Program-made: the position numbers and the translations under genes
Assembly: GCA_000091205.1 (NCBI GenBank)
Contig: AP006494.2
Source: Cyanidioschyzon merolae
Lineage: Eukaryota
Strand: one strand, 5' to 3'
DNA: 64,000 bases
Part shown: piece by piece, positions 29,915 through 61,212 of the stretch
Numbering within the stretch: the stretch's first letter is position 1
Layout: each line of letters begins with the position of its first letter
The notes under the pieces: model-generated
The model's database searches: none
What the model saw: the letters and a program-made list of their open reading frames with translations, nothing else
What the model was told of the DNA's origin: nothing

Positions 29915-30054
29915 GTCCCGCCACCGCCCGCGGACGGCGGTCGATGCAGTCGAAGCGCCACATCGTTCAAGATTCGCAGAGTGCGGCTTCCTCAAGAGCG
30001 AAAGCGCTTCGCTGTTCAAGTTTGGCCTTGCTCCAGCCGAATACTTTCTTCTAC

Positions 30055-38931: not shown

Positions 38932-40312
38932 TTCCGATTAACGCACCACACTTTGTCAGACAAGATTTTTACGGGTCCATCGATTTTCCTCCAGCGCCCG
39001 CTTCCGAGTTGGGGTTTCTTCGCACAATCATCGATACCTGCTGTTGGCGGCTTGTTCCGAGACTGCCTACCTTTCCCTTATCTTGTCTCTGGCTATGAGT
39101 ACACCGGTCTCTCGTGCCTCATCAACTCCCAGATCTGATGTCGATGGATGCTGATGGCAGTGCAAGTCCCGATTACACCGCACGGGGATATTGTCGACGC
39201 ATTTCGTGCATTGGCAAATGTTGCAATGTATGCTTCATTTGCCATATTCACCTTCTTTGTATACAGCCCCTGTGCTCGCTTCGTAACGGCAACACAAGGC
39301 TATGCGTAGATGAGACCTTATCCTCACCACAACTCATCCTCCAAGCGCCACCGCGTGGCGCGTGAGCACTTGATTCAGCGCTCGATACATGCCCCCGAAG
39401 GGCACAGAGTCCTCCCTGGATGCTCTTCGCGACATCTGCAACCAGTGCTGCACCGCACGACGACGGGTTTCTTCTAGGCGACAAACTCGGCGAGTACGCT
39501 GTCCAACGGGCGCGTAGGCGCACATTGTCCCATTCGATAGCGGATTTGTGGAGAGCGATGTCGTCTAGTGTGAAACAAGGACCAGAAGAAATATCGACGC
39601 TGGAGATCGAGTCCAGAATATTCTCTCCATCCGCGCTCCCTTCGTGCAATAGAGTTGCATAGTACCCATTGGAAGCGATCATTAGATAGCAAAGGCGAGT
39701 CCGAGACCATTTTGGATGCAAAGCGAAGCGACGGGAGCCTCCAGGAGCATATACCATGAAAGGTATCAGGCTGTGTGGAATCCCGCGACATCGATGGACA
39801 CAAGGCAACATGGTTTGTCTTTCTGACGGACATTATCATCGGATATGACACAATCTGTGAACTTTTGGCATGAGCTCCTGATCAAGTCGTCAAGGAACCT
39901 GGTCGAGTACTTATCATCGTCAATGCAGCGGAGCGCGTCCCTGTGCCCGCGAGCTGCCTTGAAACAGTCAGACCGAAAGCTTGGGGAACTCATGATTTGG
40001 ATATGCTTGATGCAGGAAAAGCGGAGGAATGGAGGCCTTTGGATAAGAACTGCATAATGGTATCGGTTATTTTACTGACGTGGGGTTGAGGGCGTCGCGA
40101 ATCATCGTGGTTTCGACGAATTAACGGATTCTAGCGACAGGAAGGGACTGCTCCGAAAAGATGACCAGTATCGTAAACCAAGGAAAGAGTGCGTAAGTCC
40201 GCATTGATGTGCTTCGAAGGTCAAGGCTGTTCATCTAGAAAAAGCTGGGGAAAGAACGGAAATACAGGAGGAGAGCGAAGAATTCCGTGTTCTGTTTTGA
40301 TCTGACATGAGA
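38932..40312 (-). mobile_element. repeat family C, copy 1 (about 1.38 kb); left arm of an inverted pair
   Basis: It is the reverse complement of 43843-45224. ORFs 39248..39811, 39114..39365 and 39845..40057 are identical to 44152..44901, 44784..45035 and 44088..44300. It encodes a transposase-like fragment on the minus strand. Its inner end is ...gttttgatctgacatg. Confidence 0.85.
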
Positions 40313-42376
40313 AGGAAGCGTAGCTTGGTTTTTGATTTGCGCGCTCATTTCTCTCCCCAGTTTCCTGCAGCTACACGTTTGGGAACAAACATGGCTCACC
40401 CTGTGAGTCTTCACTGGTTAAGACGGACGGATGACGTAGCACTTCACCGGGACGCTATCAATTCCGTGGTTTCAGTGCAATCGAGTGAATCGCAGCCTCA
40501 AGACGAGCTGTTGCTGTCAGAGAGTCGCGCTGGTGCTACGGCTTCGACGTTGGGAACGTCATCAAAGCCTTCGTTAGCTGAAGTTTCAACCGGAATTAAG
40601 CCGCAAACCAATATACAACGTGACTCACTTCGCTTACCTGAAACAGAGCGAGAGTATGAAAAGAGATCGCGTTCGAGCCAGTGGGCGAATGGAGACCTGA
40701 GTTTTCCCGAGAGAGAATGCCCGACTGTGGAAGTGAAACCTCGTTTCAGGCGAAGAATCATTTTTGGTGAGAGAAGGCAGTACGCGTTCTTTCAGGATGC
40801 TTTGTTTCCAGCTCTGTCTGACGCACCAGAGACGAGAGGTGCTATGGCCGATTCGCCCTCCGCGGACACTCCAAAACCCGCCTCCCTTGAAAGCTGTTCA
40901 GAAAGGGGAAACGGAGCCGCTTTGCACAAGACGAGAGACTCGTGCGACGTCGTTCCTGCGTTTCGGGAAAGCATTTGTTTGGGAGCTGATGCGAACAGAC
41001 TGAGCGCCGTATCCGGAGACTCTCTCAAGCTCGAAGATGATTCGAACCAGAAGCATTTTTCACTGGATAGCTCCCTAGGCCCGAACTCAAGGGCTGCCTT
41101 ATCTGATGAAATTAGCTTCCCAGGGGCACGGACGCATAGCTCAGAAGCGCTGCAGTTGGAGCTGAACAAAAGCGCCGAGAATGCGGAGTGCTCAACGATC
41201 TACGTCTATCTTTACCCCGATGGTTATTCATTTTCAGAAACAGGGTACCCTAGGTTCAGTTTCGATGGAAACTCTGATCGAATACTCTTTTGCTTAGATC
41301 AGGGTGTCCTGCCCTCTAGTTTTGAATTTCGCGCTCCGAAACGGGCTGACAGCATCAATAACGTTCGTGACGCGGTCATACTGGATTATACGCGGCCGAA
41401 GCCAAAGAAATTCCACATTACTTTGAGGCCTGACTATTTGAATATATGCCTCGCAATTGCAGAAAGTCCATACGCTCGGGAACTAAGACAAGCAGATAGA
41501 GTGCTGCAGTTGGAAGCAGAGCTACTTAAGCTTTTGCACGTTTTGGATGACTTGGAGCCTCGACTTGACCATCAAACGCTGTCGTCTCATACAGAATCCG
41601 CGCAGGTTCTTAACTTTGCTAGAACTGCAAGGCAGCATGTGGAGGTTACATTCACTAGATCACTTCCGCTTTTGCGGCTGTTTCTGACGAAACGTATGAA
41701 CAGAAATCGTCGATCCAGAGGAAAAGCAAACATCGATCTTGCATCACAGATGCTGCTTCTCGTGGCTGGCAACGAAAACCTTAACCGTTATCGTCGTACG
41801 CGAATGCGCAGCGTCACCGGTCTTCCAAGGCAGACTTCTTCCCTAGAGCTGAAGACGCCGGCAGACATTGCGGGCGCCCAACCTCTTCGAAGACCTAGTT
41901 TCTCAAACGTCATCGGGCGTTTGCTTCGGCAGCTTCGTTTCGTGTTGCATCGAGCGAGTGCAACCACGATCCAGCCAAAGTCCAACGAAGCCCCAGCTGT
42001 GACGAATGCGGACGAACCCTCTGGACAGTTGGATACCCCTACTGCGTCTGATCGAAACGCCCGACCTGCATCGAGATCGGGCGAACCAAGAATTGTATGT
42101 CTACTCGATATCATCGTCCGACCGCAACGCGGATGCGAATGTGTCATCCGCAGAGGTCAGGAAAAGAATCGAGATTTGGACATTCTACGCATCCCCGTTG
42201 GATCGGAAAGAAACGCTCACATTTTTGCGAACCAGTTTCGGCGCCTCATGCGTGGGGAAGGTTTCGTATGCGAGCAGGACTTGACGCTTCCGAGCGAGAA
42301 CAGGGTCACAGGGGAAGATAACGCTTCGGAGACGCCAGCGGCGGACGCTAGTGCTTTGCGGTTAACGAACGAGTAA
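40307..42376 (+). CDS. hypothetical Ser-rich protein (689 aa)
   Basis: A long uninterrupted ORF with low-complexity Ser/Arg-rich stretches. I recognise no domain. Its first ATG is the last three bases of the C inverted-repeat arm. Confidence 0.35.
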   Translation: MRRKRSLVFDLRAHFSPQFPAATRLGTNMAHPVSLHWLRRTDDVALHRDAINSVVSVQSSESQPQDELLLSESRAGATASTLGTSSKPSLAEVSTGIKPQTNIQRDSLRLPETEREYEKRSRSSQWANGDLSFPERECPTVEVKPRFRRRIIFGERRQYAFFQDALFPALSDAPETRGAMADSPSADTPKPASLESCSERGNGAALHKTRDSCDVVPAFRESICLGADANRLSAVSGDSLKLEDDSNQKHFSLDSSLGPNSRAALSDEISFPGARTHSSEALQLELNKSAENAECSTIYVYLYPDGYSFSETGYPRFSFDGNSDRILFCLDQGVLPSSFEFRAPKRADSINNVRDAVILDYTRPKPKKFHITLRPDYLNICLAIAESPYARELRQADRVLQLEAELLKLLHVLDDLEPRLDHQTLSSHTESAQVLNFARTARQHVEVTFTRSLPLLRLFLTKRMNRNRRSRGKANIDLASQMLLLVAGNENLNRYRRTRMRSVTGLPRQTSSLELKTPADIAGAQPLRRPSFSNVIGRLLRQLRFVLHRASATTIQPKSNEAPAVTNADEPSGQLDTPTASDRNARPASRSGEPRIVCLLDIIVRPQRGCECVIRRGQEKNRDLDILRIPVGSERNAHIFANQFRRLMRGEGFVCEQDLTLPSENRVTGEDNASETPAADASALRLTNE

Positions 42377-42554
42377 GACGGACCGTCATATTCCAAACCC
42401 AAAGATGGAAAATTCATGTTCCGATAGAATTTCTCATAGAGCATAGTGCATGTTGCTGCGCGAGGCGGCCGCATGTATAGGACTGGGGAGGCGTTCGACT
42501 GTTCCAGGCTGCATACAGGAGGTGAAGCAGCACGGCTGCTGAAATGACGCTTCT

Positions 42555-43709
42555 CTAAGCGCTTCGAACGGGCAATTTCCATGACGCGGCGATTTCATCG
42601 AGCGCAGGCTGAATTTCTTGATACTGAAACTTAAGACCGCTTTGCAACAGACGCTTTGGGAGCACGCGTTGGCCCTGGAGCACAAGTTCCGCCGCTTCGC
42701 CAAGAATCAGTTGAAGTGTGAAACTGGGTACCGGTAGCCAGTTCGGGCGTTTGAGCGCTCTTGCAAGTGAATCGCAAAACTTTTGAAACTGAACTGGGGT
42801 TGGCGCCGTGACGTTGTACACACCTTGAAAATCGGGTGATTCCAGCTCGTGCATGATAATGTTCACCAGATCTTGAATGTGTATCCACGATATCCACTGG
42901 CGTCCAGATCCAATCGTTCCACCTATGAACAAGTTAAAGAGCGGAAGCATTCGGCTCAAAGCCCCCCCATCCGGGCCGAGTACTATGCCAAATCGATTGA
43001 TGACTGTCCGGATTCCCGCATCTTGAGCAGCTGCTTCCCACTTCTTTGCGACTGATGCTAAAAAGTCCGTCCCTATCGAAGGCGAATCCTCGTCGAACGT
43101 TTCTACTTCAGATGTACCGTAGTAGCCAACAGCAGATGTGGAGATGAGAACCTTTGGTTTCCTATCAGCATGATGAACAGCTCGGACGAGCTGAAGGGTC
43201 CCGTTCACGCGGCTCTCCAGAATGCGCCTCTTGCGCTCTGCCGTCCACCTACCTTCTGAAATGGGTTCGCCAGCTAGATTAATTATAGCATCACTTCCAG
43301 CCACTGCCTCCACGACCTCCTTTGCCGGCGCATCGGCAGCAGTCGCTTCAAAGTATATTGCTTCCACCTTATAGTTAAAGGTTTTGCGGGCTTTCTCAGT
43401 ATCACGCGCCAAAAGCGTCACCGCCTTCCCCGAACCGAGAAGTTTGCGCACAAGCGCCCGGCCAACAAAGCCTGAGCCGCCACTCACAAGCACGGTTTTC
43501 GCCCTAGTATCGGATGCCTCAATGCGTAGACTATTTTTGAAAGCCCGTCGAGCACAGCGATTTGACGATTGAAGACAGTTTCTAGGCTCTTGTTTGCACC
43601 AGTCACCTACGAAGCTCGAGACACGAGGACATGCTCCAGCAAAAGCAGGCGCGTGCAAAAGCGGTCGCTGCTGATTTGGCAGAGCCAACAAGCAAAAGAA
43701 AGACAACAT
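42555..43709 (-). CDS. SDR39U1-type NAD-dependent epimerase/dehydratase (YfcH/DUF1731 family) with N-terminal targeting-like extension
   Basis: Rossmann motif VLVSGGSGFVGRAL and a full-length YfcH-like architecture with the C-terminal DUF1731 region (QQRVLPKRLLQSGLKFQY). A hydrophobic, Arg-rich leader of about 75 aa precedes the conserved core. Confidence 0.75.
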   Translation of the reverse strand: MLSFFCLLALPNQQRPLLHAPAFAGACPRVSSFVGDWCKQEPRNCLQSSNRCARRAFKNSLRIEASDTRAKTVLVSGGSGFVGRALVRKLLGSGKAVTLLARDTEKARKTFNYKVEAIYFEATAADAPAKEVVEAVAGSDAIINLAGEPISEGRWTAERKRRILESRVNGTLQLVRAVHHADRKPKVLISTSAVGYYGTSEVETFDEDSPSIGTDFLASVAKKWEAAAQDAGIRTVINRFGIVLGPDGGALSRMLPLFNLFIGGTIGSGRQWISWIHIQDLVNIIMHELESPDFQGVYNVTAPTPVQFQKFCDSLARALKRPNWLPVPSFTLQLILGEAAELVLQGQRVLPKRLLQSGLKFQYQEIQPALDEIAASWKLPVRSA

Positions 43710-43842
43710 TCTTTATCCAGTCCAACAAATCGGACGTGGCTATGCGCTCTGTTCACACACGAAAGATAAAGTGTACACCTGTGCAGGGTTAAGAAAAATT
43801 TGACGTTTGTTCACGCGCTTCAGGGAAGCTACTTCCATGTCA

Positions 43843-45224
43843 GATCAAAACAGAACACGGAATTCTTCGCTCTCCTCCTGTATTTCCGTTCTTTCCCCAG
43901 CTTTTTCTAGATGAACAGCCTTGACCTTCGAAGCACATCAATGCGGACTTACGCACTCTTTCCTTGGTTTACGATACTGGTCATCTTTTCGGAGCAGTCC
44001 CTTCCTGTCGCTAGAATCCGTTAATTCGTCGAAACCACGATGATTCGCGACGCCCTCAACCCCACGTCAGTAAAATAACCGATACCATTATGCAGTTCTT
44101 ATCCAAAGGCCTCCATTCCTCCGCTTTTCCTGCATCAAGCATATCCAAATCATGAGTTCCCCAAGCTTTCGGTCTGACTGTTTCAAGGCAGCTCGCGGGC
44201 ACAGGGACGCGCTCCGCTGCATTGACGATGATAAGTACTCGACCAGGTTCCTTGACGACTTGATCAGGAGCTCATGCCAAAAGTTCACAGATTGTGTCAT
44301 ATCCGATGATAATGTCCGTCAGAAAGACAAACCATGTTGCCTTGTGTCCATCGATGTCGCGGGATTCCACAACAGCCTGATACCTTTCATGGGATATGCT
44401 CCTGGAGGCTCCCGTCGCTTCGCTTTGCATCCAAAATGGTCTCGGACTCGGACTTTGCTCATCTCAATGATCGCTTCCAATGGGTACTATGCAACTCTAT
44501 TGCACGAAGGGAGCGCGGATGGAGAGAATATTCTGGACTCGATCTCCAGCGTCGATATTTCTTCTGGTCCTTGTTTCACACTAGACGACATCGCTCTCCA
44601 CAAATCCGCTATCGAATGGGACAATGTGCGCCTACGCGCCCGTTGGACAGCGTACTCGCCGAGTTTGTCGCCTAGAAGAAACCCGTCGTCGTGCGGTGCA
44701 GCACTGGTTGCAGATGTCGCGAAGAGCATCCAGGGAGGACTCTGTGCCCTTCGGGGGCATGTATCGAGCGCTGAATCAAGTGCTCACGCGCCACGCGGTG
44801 GCGCTTGGAGGATGAGTTGTGGTGAGGATAAGGTCTCATCTACGCATAGCCTTGTGTTGCCGTTACGAAGCGAGCACAGGGGCTGTATACAAAGAAGGTG
44901 AATATGGCAAATGAAGCATACATTGCAACATTTGCCAATGCACGAAATGCGTCGACAATATCCCCGTGCGGTGTAATCGGGACTTGCACTGCCATCAGCA
45001 TCCATCGACATCAGATCTGGGAGTTGATGAGGCACGAGAGACCGGTGTACTCATAGCCAGAGACAAGATAAGGGAAAGGTAGGCAGTCTCGGAACAAGCC
45101 GCCAACAGCAGGTATCGATGATTGTGCGAAGAAACCCCAACTCGGAAGCGGGCGCTGGAGGAAAATCGATGGACCCGTAAAAATCTTGTCTGACAGAGTG
45201 TGGTGCGTTAATCGAGAAGAGTGA
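43843..45224 (+). mobile_element. repeat family C, copy 2; right arm of the inverted pair
   Basis: See copy 1. It carries the best-preserved transposase-like ORF (44152..44901, 249 aa). Confidence 0.85.
44152..44901 (+). pseudogene. decayed DDE-nuclease-like ORF, possibly PIF/Harbinger (DDE_Tnp_4)-related
   Basis: CLVSIDVAGFH compared with GAIDGTH (D1). LISMIASNGYYATLLHEGSADGENIL compared with [29 protein letters not shown], where the first Asp is lost. SAIEWDNVRLRARW compared with VIERAFGLLKGRWRIL, with the same IE-8aa-RW spacing. Related fragments occur in family B (GYAPGNS, DDIMYQKSSIERIGALF) and family D (GYAPGGSHPF, DDIAFHKSSIDW). The Harbinger assignment is an inference from motif memory and was not searched. 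Confidence 0.4.
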
Positions 45225-45469
45225 AATCCAAATTGCGCGCCAGTTTTCATGGCGCCCCTGCGCATGATTTCTGACACGCGTTCTGTATTTTCAATTCAGA
45301 GCTACAGATCCCCGATCTCCACGCACGCTCGGTCTTGGCTCTCTTCCAATGGTTTGTAGGCGCAAATGTTCGGCGACATCGACGTCCGCCGTTTGTGGGC
45401 TCTTGGGTGCTTACTTCGCAGACAGATTTGGTTCTCCGTTACATGCTAATTATTGTTAGCACAACGAAA

Positions 45470-45960
45470 AACGATCTACCACATTAGGGTGCATGAGAAC
45501 GCACATGTCCAGACGCCTCCCAACCATTTTTGACAGGGTGCTTGCTATCAGTTCCAGCTGCTCCTTGTACACCTCTGGAATGGTAGGCTGACCCGCAAAG
45601 TCGGATCTTGTCAGCTCTTCAGGTCTCGTCCTCATAACCAAACATCGTCTGAAATTGTTGGCGGCGATGATGGCCCGGTTCAGGAACTCCAAGCGTTTAT
45701 TGCCACTGGTGGAACGGACTTGTGCAAGGAGTCCTCGAACTCGCGCCCTCTGTGCCATTCGCTGCTCTTTCAGCTCGCCGTGCTTTCCTATCGTCCAAGT
45801 GCTCCGCTGGCTTCTCTCGATCTCGAACTCGTGAAGTGTATAACCCATTGCATTCCTTATTTTCGAAAATGAACGCACTCGTTTATGCCGTTGGGTAGGG
45901 ACCTTCTCGGATGGATAAGGACTTATGGAAGAAAGACAAATACGCCCCGGTATCACCGTG
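45470..45960 (-). repeat. dispersed repeat family F, copy 3
   Basis: Its reverse complement contains aatggcacagagggcgcgagttcgaggactccttgca, matching F1 and F2. It lies about 250 bp outside the C right arm. Confidence 0.55.
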
Positions 45961-47094
45961 ATGAACGCGTCAGCGATTCACCCAGTAGAGCGATCGTAAA
46001 GATTAAGATAGGAGACACTGCTCGAGGAGATGAAGCATAGAGCGTACGGAGGAATGCAAAGCAGGCCAAGACCTATAGAACTGGCAAGAGCTCGAACGTA
46101 AAGGATATGGTGTAACATCACAGTTTCCAATAGAGGGAAGTCCCAAGATGTCAGGGAAGAGTCATCTATGATTCGACGAATTGGGTGCTGCTGTATGGGC
46201 CTTGTCTACGAGCGAGACTGACGCCGCAAAATATACCCACTGCAGCTAGAATAGATAATGACTTCGTTCTCATCGAGTTCGATCGTACATACAACGGGCC
46301 TGCTCCCAGAATACCCATCTGCGCTCCGACCGTTTCTCCCGAAGAGAGTCTCATGGGCTGGAAAAAGAAACCGAAATCCATGCGCATTATACGAATAGGG
46401 ACGTTCGCGGAATTCAGTAGTTGGCATATCTGTGGAGATCACCGTCATTGAAATTGGACTTTTTATGCGACTGTGTCCGAATGTTCTCAGGACCACACGA
46501 AAAGGCCTTTTGAGAAACAGAGGTGTTTGCGTTGGATACGGTCTTCGCTTTTGCCTTCTCTAAGGTGATCAACGAGCCGTTTTCTACAGTTGACCCCCAG
46601 CACGATTTGAGCACGTCGTTTTCTGGCGCAGAGCGTGTATACTTCTTTCTTACAGTGTTTGACAATCACTCGAGTCCTGCAGTGTGACTGCCCTGAAGGA
46701 TGAATGTAGTCCTCCTTGCACTTCTCAGTAAAGAGTATATCCTATGGGCAACTCGTCAACGATCTATGCTGTACACTGCATCATGATTTCGATCATCTGC
46801 TTTACACTGGGAAAAAGCATAGATTACGCATAGCGGGGGTGAAATATATTTGATTTGAAAGACTAATAAGATCGTTGTCTGGTGCCGATTGCAATTAAAT
46901 TTGAGTAATATTTCCACCCAACACTGGGTTCGCGTGAAGGTTGCGAGAAGGGCTACAAGAGTTAAGCTCTTTCGAACTGGAGATATTCACCGTGGATCTT
47001 TCAGGTCCAAAAGGATATAAAAGAGCGCTTGAAGACATCTCTTCGTGCTTGCTATATTTGAAAGAGTCAAATATGAGAACTAGTATTTAGTTTA

Positions 47095-48822
47095 CATTCA
47101 GAGTACTAAATTCTTGAACAAGTCTACCGGCAGGTTATTTTTGTGTTTGGTTGTTTTTCCCACAGGTATTGAACAATAAGGTTGTCCGTTGGTGAGAGAA
47201 TGGCGGTGGATAGAGTTCATGCCATCGCCGCTAGCATACCGACACGGATCTTACTTGTACAAGTCAGTCATTTTACATTCAGCAGGTGCACCAGCGACCC
47301 TTGTGGCAGTGCTTGTTCTGAACATTGCGTACCCAAAATACAACGTACTACAATGTATATATTCGACAATCTTCTGATTCGCTCATTGTATCACATAGAT
47401 CCTCTGAGAAATACCATCTGCGAAGCCACATGATGTGGGGCTTTCACATCTTTCATACTAGCGGTGATAAACAGACACCGATGAACAGAAAAGTGCGCTG
47501 CGATGCACGACGATTGCGTGTTGCCAGCAGATTGTCGAATTCGCAGCGCAAGGCGAAGGCCCGCTGCAGGACTGACTGGCGTTCGTGTCAGTCGGTGATG
47601 CTCCATTTTGCAGAAACGATCAACTCGTATATATGTCCTCACATAGGGGCGACACGAAGTTCTTAAAGAGGCGACAAGCGACATTGAAGGCGGCATGAGC
47701 CCTAGCGGTGATTTCTTCTGGTGATCTCTTACAAATCGCCGAACGAAAGGACATTCCAATACCTCATCCTCCGGCGAGGCACCTCCTGGATTCCTTCACC
47801 CACATTCCTTGGTAATGCCCTTAGACAGTATTGCTTTCCCTCGCTAAACAGCGCTCAGGCAGTATGCAGCTGTATCTGTCGTTGAGCTGCCCTACTTTTC
47901 CAGAGATCGGCAGTGTCGGGAGTCGGGCCCCAGAGACGCCAAGAGGCGTACCGACCAATGAAATGACAGCGTCCGGACCCGTCACGACGCTCTGAGACTC
48001 GTGTCGAACGGAGTGGATGCTGTGTGAGATCCATTCATAGACACGTGCGCGTCCACGTGGCTCGTGGGGACGCTCCCTCGCAGATGCACTTGAGACGTCG
48101 CTGTGGTCATCAACAGCTTGGCTCTCCGGAGGCAGGAAGCGTGCATTCTCCAGCATATTCAATGAGTTAGCAACGTATCGGACCGATAACTCGCAACGCG
48201 TGGAGGTAGCGAATGGCGCTGGACGTGCACTCGCGAGCAACGGCTGCACTCATGCTCGGTCGGCGAGAGCGTGCAACCACAGCAGGAATCGATTCTTCAC
48301 GGCTCCCGTGGATGCGTTCAGAGCGACAAACACGCGTGACCAGCGCGAGTGCGCACAGTGACCGGTAGAGAAGAAGAGTGTGAAACAGAGCTGCATGCAC
48401 GTGGTGGTGTACGGTGAGCTGATTGAGCGCCGGATGGCGAGAGAATCGAGCGAGACGTGCTTGCTGTGATGCGCTTCAACAATCCAAAATGCGCTCAGGC
48501 ACGTCCTGCACCGAGACTCGAACGCCCAATCGGTATCTGGAAATGTTTCGTGCGTTCGGAGCGTCCAGCGGTTTGTGTCATACGTACATTCGAGGCAACT
48601 GTTTCATACTGAGTGTGGGGATTGTGCTGGAATGCTGGAGACTTGCGCTGAGAAAATCAGAGGCTGGCAGCAATAGGAGCGGATTCCGGCATGTAGCAGG
48701 GCAATAGTATGGTACGGTTAGGAATCCAGACAGGATGTGGCACAGCGTATATAGAGAGGAACCTGTTTCCCATGGTAGTTGGTAGACGATGCTAGTGTTT
48801 CTCTCTTTAAGATGCTATTGAT
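47095..48822 (+). mobile_element. repeat family E, copy 1 (about 1.73 kb); left arm of an inverted pair
   Basis: It is the reverse complement of 55683-57412. ORFs 47182..47433, 47391..47759, 47821..48249, 48167..48400 and 48423..48707 are identical or near-identical to 57072..57323, 56746..57114, 56256..56684, 56105..56338 and 55798..56082. No recognisable coding domain. AT-rich tracts flank it. Confidence 0.85.
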
Positions 48823-49463
48823 TATAGAACAGTTTACAAAGCTTGGGTTCTGAAATTCTCACGTTGATTTGTTCATTAATTGTCTTGTCGACTCCAACGA
48901 GCTCTTCGAGTGCTGTGCTAAATGAATCGATACTTCTTCAAGACGAAACATAGCATAGTGCTTTCAAGATGCGAGGTCTAGTACACTATTCATGTACTTC
49001 TGCATACAATGGAACTCCAAGACCGTGGGCACTTTTGGAGGTATCTGATTTCATTTTCGAAGTACCCCTGGCGGCGAGGGTTGGTGTGATCCGATTCAAT
49101 ACCCGTTCTAAAACGTCATTCAGGAGAAAGTCTCGCGAGAGTATTTCAGGTGTTTGATCGGCTAGTTGCTCATGGGTGTTATTGGGTATGCAGCTGTCCC
49201 AGTGAAATCGTCTGTGAGCTCTCGAAACAACTAAAGAAGCGGAGTACTTCGTAGAGTCCCATGACGAAAAGCATGCCTTGTCAAGCTGTGTCCGATGCTT
49301 CCCTTCTTCTTTGCTCGGTAACCGGTGCTTTATACACAAGAAGTTCATGTTTTCTAATTCAGTCAACGATGCCCATTAAAAACCAGGGAAGCATACTGAA
49401 AACTAGCGCATTCTAGCATGGATAAACAATTATTGTTTGGAGCGAAACGACTTGAGAAAAAGT

Positions 49464-50636
49464 CTACCCCCTTCGATACCGATTGCCTTCCCCGCGGCGA
49501 TGGTCGTCTTTGAAAAGATCCCATTTCCGCTTTGCAGCTATAATCTGGTCCTCAAGCTGCGTATCCCGGGCGCCATGTGTATCATTCAAATCCGTCTCCA
49601 GTGGCTTCTTTTGCGGCTCAGGTTGCGAATTATGCTCATCACGATGTATGTGAGCAAGGCAGCAGTCACCGAAAGGAAGCTTTGTAGGTGGCTCCTCTGA
49701 AGTAATCGTGCGCCCCTGCAGAAATCGTCGAAACGCATGCGCGTTCTCAAAGTACCTCGTTCGCGAGCAATGGTTGTCTATATATACAATTTTCGGCTTT
49801 CTTCGACCTAGCGTCTCCGCATCACAAGCATGCTTTTCGTCTGCCCTTACCTCTTTGACGGATTGCTCGTACTGAGAAGCCAGGGCCTCGAGAGCTGACA
49901 TCTCGCGACCGAGTTCATACCCGCGGATAAAAGCCCACTCAGCTGCAACCGCTATAAAGCGCAGAACAAGGTTTCGCTGTTCCTCTTCAGTATCCGAATG
50001 CACGTCCGTAGGCAGTAAAGGGAACGGAAGCGCTTCAAAAGCTGTTTTTTCGTGCATGCTACCTTTCATACATATCCGTTTCGAAAAATTGCGAACAAGA
50101 TCGCACAGTCTCCGCAGATTCCTCGTGAAGTTGATTTTTGCTTCCCGCACGCCCATTGGCAATTCCGCCCCGAGTTCTTCTGAAGTTAAATTACGGATTG
50201 ACTCCAGAAATGGGCTATCCAGACCAAACGGCCCTAGCCACAGGCAGCCCTGCACCAGCTTCAGGTATTGCTGGTACAGCTGCCGAACTTCGGCGCAGGC
50301 GCCTCTTCTCTCTGCATAAGTGTTTCGTTCTGAAAGCTCACCGAAACCTTTTCTTTCAAGCAACTTATCCGCAAGAATTGCGATGTAAAAGGGAAAAAGA
50401 ATAAAACTCTGTAGTCTCCAAGTCGGAACATCCTCCAAAGCGGAGTATTCACCATGACAACCAAGTTGAGTCCGAGCTACTCGGAGCGTTTCGAGTGCGG
50501 AACTCAGCTCGGAATCATTCACAAAAACCTCTCTCGCCGAAAAAGCTGCGTCGTCTAACGCTAGCCTTATTGCCAGGTAAACACTTTCGATAAGCTTATG
50601 ACCGTTTGCGTTTGAGGCTCGTTCCTCTGTGTTCAT
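49464..50636 (-). CDS. hypothetical protein (390 aa)
   Basis: A long ORF with balanced composition. No domain recognised. Confidence 0.35.
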   Translation of the reverse strand: MNTEERASNANGHKLIESVYLAIRLALDDAAFSAREVFVNDSELSSALETLRVARTQLGCHGEYSALEDVPTWRLQSFILFPFYIAILADKLLERKGFGELSERNTYAERRGACAEVRQLYQQYLKLVQGCLWLGPFGLDSPFLESIRNLTSEELGAELPMGVREAKINFTRNLRRLCDLVRNFSKRICMKGSMHEKTAFEALPFPLLPTDVHSDTEEEQRNLVLRFIAVAAEWAFIRGYELGREMSALEALASQYEQSVKEVRADEKHACDAETLGRRKPKIVYIDNHCSRTRYFENAHAFRRFLQGRTITSEEPPTKLPFGDCCLAHIHRDEHNSQPEPQKKPLETDLNDTHGARDTQLEDQIIAAKRKWDLFKDDHRRGEGNRYRRG

Positions 50637-50709
50637 TGTGGAAGGTTTTTACCACACCGATAACGAGCATGCTTAAAAGAATCTTCAGGTTGCGCAGCAG
50701 CGTCGCTCT

Positions 50710-52290
50710 GTGGCATCGCGAGCGCTCAGTGTAGTGGTATTGGTGTTCCCCGGAGGGATGCGTTCCCGAAACGCTACTCCACCTTGTTTCGTGCAGAAAC
50801 TGTTTCGGTTTTCGCGTAAGTGCACTTCTTTTCAGCAATGCGCTAGTGTTCAAATTGTGAAACGGGAGGCGCCTGGTTCAAGAGTGGTGGTGGCGCTTGC
50901 GTTCAACTACCACAACTGCCAAGCTGCACCACACGTTGGTAGCGAATTCCGGCAGGGCGAGGTTGCTCAAAGGATCGTTAAGTACAGGACTTCAGACGGT
51001 GGGGAACGGGCGGTCTCTGTTAGAATATTTGGGAAAGCGAAAGAGAATAAACAACAACACGTGGAGCCGCCGTCGCAGCAACCACTGCAAAAGCTGCCCA
51101 CGCAGCAGCAGGAACAGAAACCTGAGGCCACCGCCAGTGACTTTACAGCTCAGAACCGACGTCTCAGCAGCTCTTTCGTTACCAAGGCTGTCAAACTCGT
51201 AGGTCCCGCAGTGGTTCGAATAGATACGGAACGGGTCGTGCAGCTACCTGCAGATCCAGTGCTGGAAGATCCGCTTTTCCGATACTTCTTTGGCGATGAG
51301 TTTCAGCGACAGTTGCCGAAGGAGCGCACGGAGCGAGGCCAGGGGTCTGGGTTCTTCATTTCCTCCGATGGTCTGCTTCTAACGAATGCCCATGTTGTTG
51401 CAAAAGCATCGAAGGTAACCGTCACCTTAATCGACGGGCGCTCGTATCCAGGAAAAGTCGTGGGCACCGATGATCTACTCGACTTGGCTGTCATCCGGAT
51501 CGATACACATTCGGAGAAGGTCCCAACTGCTCCCTTGGGCTCATCCGGAGAGCTCCAGGTGGGAGACTGGGTCATTGCACTGGGCAATCCAGTCGGTCTT
51601 GACAATACAGTCACGTTGGGCATCGTGAGTAGCCTTAATAGGTCGAGCGCGGAAGTTGGCATTCCGGATAAGAAAATCAACTTTATTCAGACTGACGCTG
51701 CAATAAACCCTGGTAACAGTGGTGGTCCGCTCGTCAATGAATTCGGTGAAGTCGTCGGGATCAGCACAGCGATTAGGCCAAACGCGGAGGGCATCGGTTT
51801 CGCGATACCAATTGACACAGCGAAAGCTGTCCTCGACATGCTCGCGAAGGGCGAAAAAGTTCAACACCCATTCATTGGGATTCAGATGGTAACGCTCACG
51901 CCGGAACTTGCCAAACAGAACAACCAAGACCCTAATGCGCTCGCTCTTATTCCGGAGGTTTCGGGTGTACTTGTCCTGAAAGTCTTGCCCAAAACCCCCG
52001 CTGCAGAATCGGGACTTCGCCGATTCGATGTCATTCTCGCGGTGAACGGCAATGCGATATCAAATGCGAGAGATATTCAAAAAATCGTCGACAGCTCGAG
52101 GGTCGGTCAGGAGTTGAAAATACGGGTCCTTCGCGGCGTCGATGGAAAGACGATCGATATCAGTATCCGGACGGCAGACATGACGCAGTTTAGGTTAGAA
52201 GAAGAGAAGAAACTGTCACCGGAGGAGGGGCAGGAGGCACCTCCCGGCATAGTGCCCATGCCCCGCCATCGAAGATTCTCAATTCCCTAA
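50710..52290 (+). CDS. DegP/HtrA-family serine protease with C-terminal PDZ domain
   Basis: Trypsin-fold triad context (TNAHVV ... DLAVIRID ... GNSGGPL) and a PDZ region (GVLVLKVLPKTPAAESGLRRFDVILAVNG). A 150-190 aa N-terminal extension precedes the protease core, with a hydrophobic leader and a Gln-rich linker. Confidence 0.85.
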   Translation: MASRALSVVVLVFPGGMRSRNATPPCFVQKLFRFSRKCTSFQQCASVQIVKREAPGSRVVVALAFNYHNCQAAPHVGSEFRQGEVAQRIVKYRTSDGGERAVSVRIFGKAKENKQQHVEPPSQQPLQKLPTQQQEQKPEATASDFTAQNRRLSSSFVTKAVKLVGPAVVRIDTERVVQLPADPVLEDPLFRYFFGDEFQRQLPKERTERGQGSGFFISSDGLLLTNAHVVAKASKVTVTLIDGRSYPGKVVGTDDLLDLAVIRIDTHSEKVPTAPLGSSGELQVGDWVIALGNPVGLDNTVTLGIVSSLNRSSAEVGIPDKKINFIQTDAAINPGNSGGPLVNEFGEVVGISTAIRPNAEGIGFAIPIDTAKAVLDMLAKGEKVQHPFIGIQMVTLTPELAKQNNQDPNALALIPEVSGVLVLKVLPKTPAAESGLRRFDVILAVNGNAISNARDIQKIVDSSRVGQELKIRVLRGVDGKTIDISIRTADMTQFRLEEEKKLSPEEGQEAPPGIVPMPRHRRFSIP

Positions 52291-52501
52291 AGCAAAAGCG
52301 TCATAGGTGTTTTGCCAATCACGGCTTTCACTAATACGTGCAGATGAAACTGATTGGATATCGCGCCTCGGCACTTAGGCTCCCGTATATTACTTCGCTC
52401 GTGTGAGAGCGTTTGGAGGAGCCTCAACAATGTTCATCCTTGCGGATCGTAAAATTTTCTACACCATTCTCTCGTGCAAAACGTTCGGATCCACTTCGCG
52501 T

Positions 52502-53329
52502 TCATAGGCTGCTCTGGTCCATCCGAGCAATCCGCTGCTCTTCAGCCAGGATGCTTTCTGTCAAGAGATCTGGAGTAGGACACTGACGTATCCAAAAGCC
52601 TTCATGATCCATAAAACTGAAAAGGTCTGGAGCAGAACGTCCCGACTGGGCCTGCCGCAGCAAAGGAACGTATAGATCACAAAACTCATACAGGCTCTCG
52701 GAGAATCTTGCAGGTAATCCATCAGTATATGCAACCGTTTCCACTAGAGCGACTTTTTGATCCCTGCTTGCAAAACATAGCATGACTGGAAGAGCGTGCG
52801 CAGCGAGCAGTTCGTGAAGTTGACTGCATTGCTTGGCACTTCGCACACCAACTAACCACAACAGGAGCCGTTCACTGAAGAGAGCCGTAAGTTCAGAGAA
52901 AGAGGCAAGTTCCTGGCAAAGTGCGCAACTCCGTTCAAGATGTGATTCATGCTCGTCCACGCAAAGCAGTAGAGCTACTAGTGGCATACCTCGTTCCTCG
53001 CTCACGCCTAAGGCACTCACGAGGTCGCTGGCAGCCCTCCCAAGGTCTAAGACCTTCAGTTTGGCCAAATTATGTTCAAGATCATTTCGTTTCCGAGTGC
53101 ACTGCTCTTCCAGGAACTCGTGCAACTTCGCACCGCACATAGCTTCCTGTGAACGGAGGACGGTACTGAGCTCCTCGACTGTGGTGAAGCGTCCACCTGC
53201 ACCGGTTCCACCATTTAGCGACGACATGGCTGCTCGTGGTGCCTCTGCTCGCCGTAAAGCATCCAAACATACTTGTGTGCTTGTCGCGGAAGCTTTTGAG
53301 TGGCCGAGCGCTTCCCCACTATAGCGCAT
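52502..53329 (-). CDS. hypothetical protein (275 aa)
   Basis: An ORF with no recognised domain. It may be part of a larger spliced gene. Confidence 0.3.
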   Translation of the reverse strand: MRYSGEALGHSKASATSTQVCLDALRRAEAPRAAMSSLNGGTGAGGRFTTVEELSTVLRSQEAMCGAKLHEFLEEQCTRKRNDLEHNLAKLKVLDLGRAASDLVSALGVSEERGMPLVALLLCVDEHESHLERSCALCQELASFSELTALFSERLLLWLVGVRSAKQCSQLHELLAAHALPVMLCFASRDQKVALVETVAYTDGLPARFSESLYEFCDLYVPLLRQAQSGRSAPDLFSFMDHEGFWIRQCPTPDLLTESILAEEQRIARMDQSSL

Positions 53330-55682
53330 CCGAGAAAGAGCTGCTGTAACCCGTCGCAGAGCAACAAATGCTATCCTTGTGTCGCAGACTTCTCGAACAC
53401 CAGCATGGGCTGTTCGAGCCGCCCTGGGTTGCTGCTCGCCCTGTGCGTCACAGAGTTCATCAGGTGTTCCGCCACGTGAGGTATAATGTGCTCTTCACAA
53501 CCAATATTCGGCCCGATCTATTCCCATGTTGTCCCTGCTGTACACTTCGTGCACATATGTGCACACAGGTTTTGTTCAACCAGCGCCCTCATTTTGAGAC
53601 GGACCTCCTTTTTCTGTAAGATGTTGACTTTCACGAACATGATCTGGAAGAATTCCTCTCAAAGACTGTGTATGTTAGCGTATTTCGAAGCGCCCCGGGA
53701 GAGAGGCTGACGGTTGTTTTGTTGCAGTACGCGGTGCCCAGTGAAAGCTTCTGCTTTGACTCGACTGGTGCCACGATACGCACGTGGACACGTACTCCGA
53801 AAACAGTCGTTTCGTTTGGAGAAATATTGGAATTGTGATAGCTCTTCGCTATAGTGAGACAGGACTTTTGTTTGTGCTTGGAACAACCTACTTGCTCTGG
53901 GACACGTATGACTCTGATGTGAAGGCCGTTCACGCAGCAGATTGCGTGACACGGTCGGTGGAGTTTGCGCCGTGTACGGAAAGATCGTTTGTAACTTTAT
54001 CCGGAGATCTCAACTCAACGCCCGAATTGCATGAGATAGAGCTGCCTCTGAATGGTTCAACGATTCTGCCGAGCCTTGGAGCCAGTGCACCTTGCAGTGA
54101 TTCGAGGACCACGGAAGCCTCCCTATCCTCGCCAACAACTCCGAGCCCTGGAACGGCTTACTCGAAAGCAAGATTCGCTCGCTATCCCCGACTTCCAGAG
54201 GAACGTATTGTGCAGCTTCCAGAAAATCAAACTTTGTGCCATACGTACGATGCGATGGTAACGGATGTGCTCGAGCCTCTGTGAGCGACTCGGAGGAAGA
54301 AGTTTTGTATAAGTTATTGACTCTATTCTCACTCAACCATCGCATGCCGCTGCGGAACAAATCCTTTGCTCTTCAGAGGGTTTCGAGGAAGAATCTTTTA
54401 GTCCAATGATGTATCCCCTTCGGGTCACTTCCCCGCTGTGGCACACACAAGCTTTATGTCGGATCTGAGTCAGTGCGATTTCTCGAACGTCATTGCTTGG
54501 TTTTATAAGAAAACAAAGGGGCACCACTTGCCCAGGGTTTGGTTCATCGCGAACACTTGATCGTGAACATCGGAACATCGCTCTATTGCGAAGCTGGTTG
54601 CACCGAGCCACAGAAGAGCGGTATTTCTAGCAAGAGGCTCGACCCGAAACTCTGAAGAACACCATCGGATGAAGTGAGAGCATTATCACACTGTCCGACG
54701 TGGCCTGTGAGCGCCGACACTCATCCAATATATTCGTGTTCACGAGCTGCTGTTGCATAGAAAAACCGCAACAGCAGCAGCTGCTACAACGAGCGTTCCT
54801 CTGGTGTGCGACACCGGCAGGATTTACATCGGGCGCAGAGCCTCTCAACAGCGTGAGGCGGTTTTATGTCTCAAATGCCGGTGCGAGCCGTTCAAAGCAA
54901 ACATTTTGCATTGAGGAATACTACACTGCCAGCATCTTGTTCATAATAGATTCATGACACCGAGGAGGTTTCGTAGAGAATACGTGATAAGAGTCTGAGC
55001 ACATTCCTGAGGAGTTTGCGCTACATCGGTGTGCCGTATGGAGCATTTTATGGACGGAAAAGTATGAGGGCACGAAACTTCAGAACCTCGAATCAAACTG
55101 CAACATATCTACAAACTGTCAAATAGGACGTCCACTTGCCTTGTCTCTATTCTTCTACAGGTAACAGGGACTGATGCAATGAATTTTTAGTGGCGTATTG
55201 GAATCCGGGCCGAATATCCAAAGAGGCGCTGGATGCTCGATTTCCAATCTGTAGCCGCGCATCCGGGCAAGGTTGCTCGGAAAACCGGTCTATTTCGGCA
55301 GCAGTCCGCAGTTCGCGACCTCAGACATTGCGCGCGGACTACACACTAGAGCAGAGCATGCGGCTGGCCGCCCTGCATCCTGATGCAACCACAGACGCAG
55401 TAGGTAGCCTCGACAACAATAGACCGAAGCGTTGCGCATCAAGGCACTTTTGGTGGTTGCTCGCGGACGAAAAATTTTATCCCAGTTTTTCCACTTAAGA
55501 TCGTATGAACACGAGATTCCCAACCAACATGCCTAATAACAACAAGAGATAGAGCAAATCTATCACAGAATTTGAATTATGAAGGTCTTCATTCGATGTG
55601 AAGCTTTTACAAGCGTTATAAACACCTGCGGATTCGAACGCATATACTGTTGCTATCAAAAGCGTCTGATACATATCCTACA

Positions 55683-57412
55683 CTCAATAGCATCTTAAAG
55701 AGAGAAACACTAGCATCGTCTACCAACTACCATGGGAAACAGGTTCCTCTCTATATACGCTGTGCCACATCCTGTCTGGATTCCTAACCGTACCATACTA
55801 TTGCCCTGCTACATGCCGGAATCCGCTCCTATTGCTGCCAGCCTCTGATTTTCTCAGCGCAAGTCTCCAGCATTCCAGCACAATCCCCACACTCAGTATG
55901 AAACAGTTGCCTCGAATGTACGTATGACACAAACCGCTGGACGCTCCGAACGCACGAAACATTTCCAGATACCGATTGGGCGTTCGAGTCTCGGTGCAGG
56001 ACGTGCCTGAGCGCATTTTGGATTGTTGAAGCGCATCACAGCAAGCACGTCTCGCTCGATTCTCTCGCCATCCGGCGCTCAATCAGCTCACCGTACACCA
56101 CCACGTGCATGCAGCTCTGTTTCACACTCTTCTTCTCTACCGGTCACTGTGCGCACTCGCGCTGGTCACGCGTGTTTGTCGCTCTGAACGCATCCACGGG
56201 AGCCGTGAAGAATCGATTCCTGCTGTGGTTGCACGCTCTCGCCGACCGAGCATGAGTGCAGCCGTTGCTCGCGAGTGCACGTCCAGCGCCATTCGCTACC
56301 TCCACGCGTTGCGAGTTATCGGTCCGATACGTTGCTAACTCATTGAATATGCTGGAGAATGCACGCTTCCTGCCTCCGGAGAGCCAAGCTGTTGATGACC
56401 ACAGCGACGTCTCAAGTGCATCTGCGAGGGAGCGTCCCCACGAGCCACGTGGACGCGCACGTGTCTATGAATGGATCTCACACAGCATCCACTCCGTTCG
56501 ACACGAGTCTCAGAGCGTCGTGACGGGTCCGGACGCTGTCATTTCATTGGTCGGTACGCCTCTTGGCGTCTCTGGGGCCCGACTCCCGACACTGCCGATC
56601 TCTGGAAAAGTAGGGCAGCTCAACGACAGATACAGCTGCATACTGCCTGAGCGCTGTTTAGCGAGGGAAAGCAATACTGTCTAAGGGCATTACCAAGGAA
56701 TGTGGGTGAAGGAATCCAGGAGGTGCCTCGCCGGAGGATGAGGTATTGGAATGTCCTTTCGTTCGGCGATTTGTAAGAGATCACCAGAAGAAATCACCGC
56801 TAGGGCTCATGCCGCCTTCAATGTCGCTTGTCGCCTCTTTAAGAACTTCGTGTCGCCCCTATGTGAGGACATATATACGAGTTGATCGTTTCTGCAAAAT
56901 GGAGCATCACCGACTGACACGAACGCCAGTCAGTCCTGCAGGGGGCCTTCGCCTTGCGCTACGAATTCGACAATCTGCTGGCAACACGCAATCGTCGTGC
57001 ATCGCAGCGCACTTTTCTGTTCATCGGTGTCTGTTTATCACCGCTAGTATGAAAGATGTGAAAGCCCCACATCATGTGGCTTCGCAGATGGTATTTCTCA
57101 GAGGATCTATGTGATACAATGAGCGAATCAGAAGATTGTCGAATATATACATTGTAGTACGTTGTATTTTGGGTACGCAATGTTCAGAACAAGCACTGCC
57201 ACAAGGGTCGCTGGTGCACCTGCTGAATGTAAAATGACTGACTTGTACAAGTAAGATCCGTGTCGGTATGCTAGCGGCGATGGCATGAACTCTATCCACC
57301 GCCATTCTCTCACCAACGGACAACCTTATTGTTCAATACCTGTGGGAAAAACAACCAAACACAAAAATAACCTGCCGGTAGACTTGTTCAAGAATTTAGT
57401 ACTCTGAGTATA
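55683..57412 (-). mobile_element. repeat family E, copy 2; right arm of the inverted pair
   Basis: See the E copy 1 entry. Confidence 0.85.
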
Positions 57413-57461
57413 ACGCTGAGCACCTCCCTAACTATACTGGGAGCGAGCTGTTTTTCGAGAC

Positions 57462-57749
57462 ATGGTTGATTCACGTGAAAGCGAAGATGCTGGTGAGAGT
57501 CCACTGGAGAACTACACTCCAAACAGACCAACTCTAGACAAGTTCAAGAAGAACCCCTTGGTGCCCGCCGGCGCCCTCCTTACTGCTATAGTGCTTGCCG
57601 GTGGAATTACTGCTTTCCAGAGGGGAAACGTTATCTGGAGTCAAAGGATGATGCGGGCACGTGTTGCAGCGCAAGGCGCGACGTTGCTCATTTTGGCTGC
57701 TTCAGTGGGCGCGTTCAGAGGGGGGCCCTCCCCGCAGTCGACGAAGTGA
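57462..57749 (+). CDS. HIG1-domain protein (Rcf1/HIGD-like respiratory supercomplex factor)
   Basis: FKKNPLVPAGALLTAIVLAGGITAFQRGNVIWSQRMMRARVAAQGATLLILAA matches the HIG_1_N consensus (K...P.vP.G...T...L.........gn...sq.lMr.RV.AQg.T). It starts 50 bp outside the E right arm. Confidence 0.55.
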   Translation: MVDSRESEDAGESPLENYTPNRPTLDKFKKNPLVPAGALLTAIVLAGGITAFQRGNVIWSQRMMRARVAAQGATLLILAASVGAFRGGPSPQSTK

Positions 57750-59499: not shown

Positions 59500-60612
59500 A
59501 CCGAGTCGAACGCACACTGCATCACTCTTCGCTTTTTTCATGTACAGCAATCTCAAATCACACATTCTTCAAGTATTAGGTCGTTCTGTTTGAGGCCAAC
59601 TGGTATGTGCAGTGGTTCGCGCTGCCAGATCCACTACTGAAAAAACTTGACGTCGCCCCTTGACACGCTCCTCACGCGCTCATGCCAGGAGTTTTACTGA
59701 ATTTGTCACATTAAACAATCGATTCTGTTCGCAATGCAAATCCGCCTCTCTATTTGGTCGTCGACGAAACCGGATTCCCCATCAGGTTGATAGGTCTGAC
59801 GGGATATGCTCCCGGAGGCTCTCATCCGTTCCGCTTGCATGGAATAGAGCCTCAGACTCGCTCTTCAATCATCGCGAGGATCGCTTCCAGAGGAGCGTGC
59901 GCCACTGCTTTCCACGAAGAGAGCTTAGACAGATCGAATTTTCTCGAATTGTTTTGCAACCTGGATATTCCTTCTGTTCCATGTTTCATCATGGACGACA
60001 TTGCGTTCCACAAATCCTCGATCGACTGGTACAGTGTGCACATGCGCATGCTGCTGATAGAGTACTCGTCGATGTCATTGTATGCAAGAAGCTCTTGATC
60101 ATAGTGTACTGCGCCGTGCTTAGATACGAAGGAGCGTATTCGAAGAAGCCTTCTATACCCGTCAAGCGTATGCGCCGAGCGATGAAGCACGTGTTGATCC
60201 ACCATAGTGCTGTGCTCGGAGGAAGAGAGGCGGTGCATGTATGATTACGCCTGCCAACAGCCGAGTGTCACCGTTGCGAAAGACGCGTAGAAGCACCATA
60301 CAGGGAAGATGAAATCGGCGAGCGAAGCTTAAATTGCAACTTCCGCCTGTAAAAGAAGTGCGTCACAAAAAGACGGAGGCGCAGAAGATGAGACTCTAAC
60401 GCAGCCATCAACATACTTCGACAGCTGACAACGGTGCCGGAGGGAGAAGAGAGACTGCCATATTTGAAGACCGGGGATGAGATAGGGTAAAAGGAAGCAA
60501 TGGGAAAAAGCCTAAAAAGGATGAAGATGTTAACGCTGGGAAGAAACCTAAAGTTTAGAGTGTGCGTCCGAGTTTGCAGATCTGTTCCAGTTCATTCTGA
60601 CATGGGTGTAAT
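59500..60612 (+). mobile_element. repeat family D (single copy in this window); related to B and C
   Basis: It encodes a decayed protein fragment (59754..60098) with GYAPGGSHPFRLHG and CFIMDDIAFHKSSIDW. Its 3' end (60535-60612) is clearly homologous to the B terminus (..aaagtttagagtgtgcgtccgagtttgcagatctgttccagttcattctgacatggg). The 5' boundary is uncertain. Confidence 0.6.
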
Positions 60613-61212
60613 GATATATAGCTATTCCGCGATAATCGACTGCTGCTCCAGCGAATGCAGCTGTAGGACTCCTGCAATCGTTGCGGCATCTGCAGATTCC
60701 TTACGCTCAGTGCATCTTTAAAATTTCGTCCCCTGTACTCGACGTGTCCGCGCATGGCTCGCTCTTGTAACCAAAAGACGCGCTACAGGGGCCGAGTCAC
60801 AAGCCTCTGCAGAGTTGCTCCAAGCAAAGGTCGAGTCTGCGTACAAAGCGCACTACATCTGCGCGAGAAGACGCACCTACTTGGTGCCCAGATAGAGCGT
60901 TTCTTCCAACGGATGAAAGGCGCTCACAATCCTGAATCTCGAAAAGCGCGGCAGATATTAATCCAGTTGCCCAGCTTCGAAATTTGCCAAGCTTTATTGG
61001 TCCTCGTCGTGATGGCAAGAGCTCGCGGAATAGAGACAGCCCGATGAAAATAGACTGACTCTTCGTGCATTGTGATGCACCCTCTAGTGAACTTGTGCAC
61101 CGGGGCAGCAACCCGAGCCCGAGCCCGAACTCCTGCAGCACTAGTCCCGCAGCATCAATGCAAGGATGAAGCGCTGAACTAGCCAAATCCCATCAGAGAA
61201 TGGACGCTACCA

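Follow-up and report, generated by a model that had tools for sequence, protein, structure and literature searches.

Concertedly evolving, probably transposon-derived inverted repeats flank an in-place and probably invertible gene block on chromosome 12 of Cyanidioschyzon merolae

Introduction

Inverted transposon copies or segmental duplications in which the arms undergo gene conversion and the intervening DNA is inverted by recombination form a known class of chromosomal structure. In the systems attributed to non-allelic homologous recombination (NAHR), such as yeast Ty pairs and the recurrent inversions of Drosophila and humans, near-identical inverted copies flank a spacer that remains in place, the repeats are homogenised and contain the breakpoints, and populations hold both orientations. 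The subject of this work is a locus of that class on chromosome 12 (859,119 bp; Table 1 of PMC1955436) of Cyanidioschyzon merolae 10D, a red alga. It lies within a 64,000-nucleotide stretch of contig AP006494.2 (assembly GCA_000091205.1; hereafter ‘the window’), where two inverted arms of a repeat termed family E, E1 and E2, enclose a 6.9-kb block of genes as the third of three such cassettes. This locus shares the near-identical inverted copies, the in-place spacer and the homogenised arms; breakpoints inside the repeats and both orientations of the block are suggested here by unphased short-read contigs. Compared with the NAHR inversion systems, its arms are short (1.7 kb) and the host genome is very compact, transposon-poor and haploid. 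No new mechanism is revealed.

Other described systems share some of these features. The palindromes of primate Y chromosomes also have inverted arms that evolve in concert; in contrast to these, the E arms are non-coding, are probably transposon-derived and hold no genes for conversion to protect. Orientation isomers of a unique segment are expected here, as they are for plastid inverted repeats and for the flip-flop of the yeast 2-micron plasmid, although the C. merolae locus lacks a dedicated recombinase of the FLP kind. Inverted copies of one element around host genes are likewise the architecture of bacterial composite transposons and of IS26/Tn3 replicative inversion, and in the latter variant the host DNA also stays in place. 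However, the E arms have neither a transposase nor a consistent target duplication, the enclosed genes are ancestral and syntenic, and the host is a eukaryote.

The explanation favoured here is that two ∼ 1.72-kb, non-coding and non-autonomous family E copies would have inserted in opposite orientation around an ancestral four-gene block. The arms would then recombine with each other, with gene conversion giving rise to their near-identity within a genome, and exchanges resolved as crossovers would invert the 6.9-kb block; natural populations probably contain both orientation isomers of the locus. As a whole, this reading (transposon-derived inverted repeats, gene conversion and probable recombination-driven inversion of a block that has stayed in place) is assigned a probability of about 0.7 on the sequence evidence presented below.

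C. merolae serves as a gene-targeting model, and its genome as the ‘simplest’ of a free-living eukaryote. The few repeats concentrated in the window, which evolve in concert and bound every local rearrangement, would explain how gene order changes in so compact a genome. The reference orientation of several 5–10 kb blocks, carrying DegP, a TAP42-like gene and others, may not hold in other strains or subcultures, and the locus offers a ready-made natural substrate for measuring conversion and inversion between inverted repeats.

Structure of the E1 and E2 arms

Self-comparison of the window placed the arms at 47092–48827 and 55678–57413, inverted with respect to each other, each 1736 nt long and separated by 6850 nt. 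The near-identical inverted arms described in the initial annotation were thus recovered, with coordinates that agree to within 3–5 nt. When the arms were compared base by base, 6 mismatches were found over 1736 nt, four of these in the terminal 6 nt at each end. In every strain examined, the terminal 6 nt of each arm vary with the flank and not with the repeat. The end mismatches are therefore flank-specific and the true repeat is 1724 nt long, at 47098–48821 for E1 (plus strand) and 55684–57407 for E2 (minus strand). Within this repeat proper, E2 differs from E1 at 2 of 1724 positions (arm positions 453 and 472). E1 is a full-length family E copy with the outer terminus TCAGAG and the inner terminus CTATTGA. 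The identity ends abruptly on all four sides, and over such a length it cannot be due to chance. AT-rich tracts had been described around both arms; three of the four 50-nt flanks are indeed AT-rich (74%, 66% and 60%, with 48% for the whole window), but the flank on the HIG1 side is not (50%).

The same structure was found in independent assemblies of hot-spring metagenomes and sequencing runs that are 97.5–99.9% identical to the window (contigs from these are given L numbers). The Logan contigs L028 and L029 consist of the spacer with exactly 30 nt (k-1) of arm on either side, the two arm ends being inverted with respect to each other; L014 is a collapsed contig of the arm alone (47098–48797), and the junction between the left flank and E1 is contained in both L012 and L015. 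Many contigs that enter from the HIG1 side break 127–147 nt into the arm, which corresponds to the k-mer length, and independent read sets gave the spacer as a single contig that extends k-1 nt into the arm at both ends. Because independent assemblies reproduce the structure, the inverted repeat is genuine and present in natural strains. In one MEGAHIT assembly, contig L001 (European Nucleotide Archive ERZ27247235, k141_521875) runs from HIG1 through the whole arm with no break at the outer boundary and stops at the inner boundary. For a repeat with two copies this behaviour is not expected; it may be due to low coverage of the left junction or to a mixture of strains.

Concerted evolution of the arms

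Every arm-bearing contig was aligned to the E arm for variant comparison. At arm positions 25, 46, 94 and 135 both 10D arms carry G, A, T and C, and E1 in L015 and E2 in L002–L006 carry T, G, C and A. No site inside the repeat groups the sequences by paralogue, that is, E1 versus E2. The arms of L001 and L014 differ from those of 10D at 14/1722 and 22/1700 positions, respectively, which is comparable to the divergence of unique sequence, versus 2/1724 between the two 10D arms. Overall, the arms are ∼ 99.9% identical within a genome and 0.1–1.3% diverged between strains.

Both E junctions are present in strains that are 0.2–2.5% diverged from 10D (L012, L015 and L001–L006), and the E1/E2 pair therefore predates the strain splits. 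Homogenisation is required, because otherwise the divergence between the two 10D arms should be no smaller than that between orthologous arms. As judged from the assembled sequences, these comparisons show that E1 and E2 evolve in concert, and they strongly indicate that E1 and E2 of one divergent strain are identical to each other and different from those of 10D.

At the two positions where the 10D arms differ, 453 and 472 (window 56961 and 56942), the E2 alleles in 10D are those of a divergent natural haplotype (L001, L014 and L041). Bounded by the 10D-type sites 439 and 489, this segment looks like a conversion tract of less than 50 nt.

Synteny of the enclosed block with a related genus

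The corresponding locus of a relative, which is closer to C. merolae than Cyanidium caldarium and is probably a Cyanidiococcus, was found via its TAP42-like orthologue on a 271,863-bp contig and was compared with the window by tblastn. The gene order there is ANAPC8, g354, HIG1, Exo_endo_phos, g239, DegP, TAP42, g668, epimerase, E2F/DP, EXOSC1 and LIAS. In the window, the order from ANAPC8 to HIG1, followed by E2, then Exo_endo_phos, g239, DegP and TAP42, and then E1, matches that of the relative in both order and relative strands. No direct or inverted repeat of at least 60 nt was found in the 21-kb syntenic region of the relative. The block is ancestral and in place, because its genes are collinear with this repeat-free locus, as are the flanks on either side. 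The comparison thus suggests that the repeats were added around the block in the Cyanidioschyzon lineage, after its split from the repeat-poor sister genus; repeats make up 12.7% of the Cyanidioschyzon genome versus 0.59% in Cyanidiococcus (PMC9812998).

Orientation of the enclosed block

Five contigs cross a whole E arm. The flipped isomer is represented by L012, L039, L041 and L046 and the 10D order by L040 (28 kb). L012, a short-read contig of 7.4 kb, reads 41600 to 40315 in reverse, the cassette-2 arm, 45225–47097, the E arm and then 55683 to 54603 in reverse, so that the left flank is joined via the arm to the right end of the spacer. In L039 (from a 54.5-kb contig), L041 and L046, the arm connects HIG1 with the TAP42 end of the spacer, which is again the flipped order. 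The occurrence of both isomers is the outcome that exchange between the arms would predict. On these unphased contigs, a real orientation polymorphism of the 6.9-kb block appears slightly better supported than its absence, and inversion by crossing over between the arms is probable though not proven. Intrachromosomal homologous recombination between short repeats has been demonstrated experimentally in 10D (PMC13353863). Recombination hot-spots had been offered as one possible origin of the cassettes, and this proposal gains support from the concerted evolution of the arms and from the occurrence of contigs with both spacer orientations.

The 3′ end of the TAP42-like gene faces E1 and the 3′ end of the Exo_endo_phos pseudogene faces E2. 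Since both spacer ends are thus gene 3′ ends, inversion of the block would not rewire promoters; the flip should be selectively neutral and a regulatory switch is unlikely.

Nature of family E

The arms had been described as lacking recognisable coding capacity, and this description holds: the longest open reading frame (ORF) is 142 aa, and no Pfam domain was found in the arms, this ORF included. A search of 5.8 billion proteins with three concatenated minus-strand arm ORFs returned no homologue, the window gave no Rfam or tRNA match, and a scan of viral contigs with a pattern conserved between E1 and a further copy, E3, gave 0 matches. Tandem Repeats Finder detected no tandem subrepeats in the arms, which also show no internal repeats longer than 16 nt and no internal inverted structure. 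Look-ups of the arm ORF and of the DDE-like ORF of cassette 2 returned only one contig each. At the relative's locus, tblastx and blastn with the arm and the adjacent non-genic stretches found nothing; because the arm is not detectable there, it cannot be polarised which of the two arms is the original.

E3 (26011–28476, plus strand) is an ancient third family E copy, ∼ 61–62% identical to the arms and covering arm positions 8–1692. It was aligned with nhmmer, as the first half of E1 and E3 was misaligned in a MAFFT global alignment; arm positions 8–802 match 26017–26816 (E = 2e-25) and positions 799–1692 match 27555–28454 (E = 3e-54), and an extra 740-nt block is present in E3 at 26817–27554. 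E3 starts at the same TCAGAG terminus as E1 and E2, the upstream flanks being unrelated, and its 3′ end agrees with that of the arms only to within ∼ 44 nt. The terminus shared with the arms next to unrelated upstream sequence indicates that family E is a discrete ∼ 1.72-kb repeat unit. It is most simply seen as a non-autonomous mobile element that is non-coding and specific to the Cyanidioschyzon lineage, and the shared terminus suggests that the arms arose by transposition. E3 itself lies ∼ 15–20 nt downstream of the 3′ end of a copy of a second repeat family, T, inside the spacer of cassette 1.

Several known element types were considered for family E and rejected. Helitrons have 5′-TC and 3′-CTRR termini and a 3′ subterminal hairpin, and insert between host A and T. 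In reverse orientation the ends of E read TC...CTGA and so resemble Helitron termini, but a GC-rich hairpin is absent, and the bases of the host at the insertions are A/A, C/G and ?/G. A foldback (FB-like) element is not indicated, as the arms are not built of tandem subrepeats, and E has neither the termini nor the DDE_3-like ORF that would make it a member of the class II (Tc1/IS630-like) family T. A solo long terminal repeat (LTR) would be expected to have TG...CA ends, whereas those of E are TCAGAG...TATTGA; no LTR elements have been reported in C. merolae (PMC1955436). This genome carries unclassified repeats that lack terminal inverted repeats (PMC3627910). Among these, the CMe-1A Fanzor1 elements and TE-N2_CMe of Bao and Jurka (2013) are, like E, C. 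merolae-specific and dispersed, with no terminal inverted repeats and undeterminable target duplications (PMC3627910); no Fanzor/TnpB-like ORF is present in E.

A metagenome scan with the outer arm end recovered only two outer E flanks, and the other family E copy in the window is very diverged, in contrast to the near-identical close pair E1/E2. Across the 64-kb window and this outer-flank scan, nothing suggests that young family E copies are highly abundant. The initial annotation had named two findings that together would speak against its reading, a family E so abundant that close inverted pairs would be expected by chance, and enclosed genes that are syntenic and repeat-free in relatives; the latter is what was found, the former is not suggested by the data.

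Weighing of alternative explanations

Several observations weigh against the recombination reading set out in the Introduction. The arms have no terminal inverted repeat beyond TCA...TGA, no target-site duplication, no poly(A) and no ORF with homologues; in element orientation, their flanks are TTACAT/TTATAG and TTATAC/GTGTAG, with no consistent target duplication. L015 and L002–L006 come from different samples, and E1 and E2 of one divergent genome have not been seen together. With regard to flipping, both isomers yield the same de Bruijn graph and short-read assemblers cannot phase a perfect repeat of 1.7 kb, most assemblies break at the arm, and the contigs that cross it may reflect an arbitrary choice of path. 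The contigs of sample 3300050379 cross the E arm (L041) but not the shorter arm of cassette 2 (L023). In addition, some samples are possibly re-assemblies of the same reads, so that the four flipped contigs may not be independent.

The second arm could instead have been made, together with an inversion, in one step of intramolecular replicative (copy-in) transposition, with later homologous flips giving the present orientation. This would account for each cassette being an inverted pair of the same element around in-place DNA and for the inversion of cassettes 1 and 2 versus the relative, and the flank upstream of E2 (TTATAC) matches that downstream of E1 (TTATAG) at 5/6 positions, as would be expected of a split target duplication. 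For the reciprocal pair of flanks the match is only 2/6, however, and the 5/6 match drops to 4/6 in another strain (L007) and is near chance in AT-rich sequence; moreover, the cassette-3 block of 10D is not inverted versus the outgroup and E has no transposase. Replicative DNA transposition of the IS26/Tn3 type is, to our knowledge, not established in red algae, and this origin is regarded as unlikely. The near-identity of the arms and the recovery of only two outer flanks among natural samples would also fit a young local transposition, in which an E copy hopped ∼ 7 kb in inverted orientation with neither conversion nor flipping; local hopping is typical of DNA transposons. Yet the pair predates strains that are 0.2–2.5% diverged, the difference between its arms in 10D is only 0.12%, and lineage-specific variants occur in both arms alike, so that homogenisation is required and a recent hop by itself is an improbable explanation.

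In Drosophila and Anopheles, inversions with inverted duplications on either side are known, and the arms could likewise be a segmental duplication left by the inversion process itself, through staggered breaks or template switching, with no transposition involved. The absence of transposon hallmarks from E would agree with this, but the arms have their boundary where the independent old copy E3 has its terminus, which is unexpected for duplications defined by breaks, and the block is not inverted in 10D versus the outgroup; such an origin is very unlikely. The initial annotation had proposed paired-end or foldback mobilisation of host segments, in which the two arms would move the enclosed genes as a unit, as in a composite or foldback transposon. 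The architecture of inverted arms around cargo is similar, but for this cassette the proposal is contradicted by the collinearity of the cargo and both flanks with the sister-genus locus, by outer flanks (TTACAT and GTATAA) that are unrelated and form no direct duplication around the cassette, and by arms that have no transposase, terminal inverted repeat or foldback-type subrepeats, which leaves it with hardly any credibility. Finally, a repeat falsely duplicated during assembly or finishing of the 10D reference might be suspected, since 13 former 10D gaps were 99.4–100% identical to other regions and high-identity repeats are thus hard to finish (PMC1955436). This is refuted by the independent assemblies, in which all four junctions, the collapsed contig of the arm and the boundary breaks at k-mer length are seen again.

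Cassettes 1 and 2 and the class II family T

The arms of cassettes 1 and 2 are copies of family T and not of family E. Family T is a class II family with the terminal inverted repeats CATGTCAGA...TCTGACATG; it contains an ORF that matches DDE_3 below the threshold. Eight copies are present in the window, at 4093–5439, 17556–18221 (partial), 20030–21384, 24612–25956, 31416–32770 (minus strand), 38925–40314 (minus strand), 43832–45224 and 59608–60623. Only eight class II elements have been reported in the whole C. merolae genome (Nozaki et al., 2007; PMC1955436), and the entire genomic class II complement may therefore sit in this 64-kb region.

Both T-bounded cassettes differ in gene order from the relative. 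In cassette 2 (38925–45224), the block that carries a 689-aa gene (g668 of the relative) and the epimerase gene is inverted; among the short-read contigs, L012 has the orientation of the outgroup and L018 that of 10D. In cassette 1 (17556–32770), RabGAP (18447–19907, minus strand) lies on the other side of the SIP5–ELO block and is reversed. Two nested inversions with breakpoints at the T copies at 17.6, 20.0 and 31.4 kb would explain this arrangement. All gene-order differences between the window and the relative are inversions that have inverted repeat copies at their boundaries.

The presence of three inverted pairs in 64 kb had been taken to be more than random insertion would give and to point to a common cause. 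The common cause stands, given inversions with breakpoints at inverted copies; mobilisation of host segments as that cause does not. The cause would be recombination between inverted copies, possibly aided by local transposition and by preferential deletional loss of close direct pairs. It is doubtful that the region is a natural cluster of three nested invertible cassettes that flip appreciably in clonal and wild populations, and/or that E or T elements create cassettes by an inversion-generating replicative transposition undescribed in eukaryotes. Should either prove true, the tractable and homologous recombination-proficient C. merolae would be a direct system for determining rates of inversion and conversion.

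Not all close repeat pairs in the window are inverted. The T copies at 4093–5439 and 24612–25956 form a direct pair that is 99.6% identical and 20.5 kb apart, with weaker homology extending past the T ends to 5532 and 26052, respectively. Within cassette 2, contig L026 matches the window from 43990 to a point in the 689-aa gene, 41639, and then continues into unrelated DNA with an ATP-synt_C gene (L026 2353–3720); L012 starts at 41600, near this point of divergence. The break at ∼ 41600–41639 may be a structural variant or a chimeric contig. A reciprocal translocation between 10D and MS1 has been reported (PMC13353863).

Genes within and next to the E cassette

The spacer (48822–55683, 6.86 kb) holds the genes listed in the initial annotation, namely a 390-aa gene, DegP, a 275-aa gene and ∼ 2 kb of unannotated sequence, which could be assigned further. 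The 390-aa product (49464–50636, minus strand) is TAP42-like (PF04177, E = 1.3e-8) and has a 42% identical orthologue in the relative. It is followed by the DegP/HtrA serine protease gene (50758–52290, plus strand; from an upstream GTG the ORF starts at 50710), the product of which has Trypsin_2 and PDZ domains and is 76% identical to that of the relative. The 275-aa gene (52502–53329, minus strand) is lineage-restricted and is the orthologue of the relative's 239-aa gene g239 (42% identity, E = 4e-51). Exact look-ups of the 275-aa and 390-aa 10D proteins returned nothing on record. Part of the unannotated 2 kb is occupied by an Exo_endo_phos (endonuclease/exonuclease/phosphatase) pseudogene (53425–54455, plus strand) with at least six in-frame stops and one frameshift. 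The gene is intact in the relative (375 aa); in other C. merolae strains there is likewise no gene called at this position.

HIG1 (57462–57749, plus strand) encodes a protein identical to BAM80787.1/XP_005536823.1 of C. merolae 10D. It had been placed ∼ 50 bp outside the right arm, and its ATG at 57462 is indeed 49–55 bp outside E2. Because HIG1 starts so close to E2, its promoter region would have to lie in the outer end of the arm. The mating-type locus was considered as an identity for this transposon-rich, rearranged region and was rejected, as the window is on chromosome 12 and the candidate mating-type region, CMK076C–CMK078C, is on chromosome 11 (PMC13353863).

On the other side of the cassette, the left flank between cassette 2 and E1 (45225–47097) has no convincing gene and contains old diverged repeats. 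Such repeats, 65–70% identical to each other, match 46219–46597 with 10–388 (inverted), 45512–45759 with 17298–17537 and 14959–15206, and 17008–17549 with 14671–15218. The region between cassettes 2 and 3 consists largely of repeat relics.

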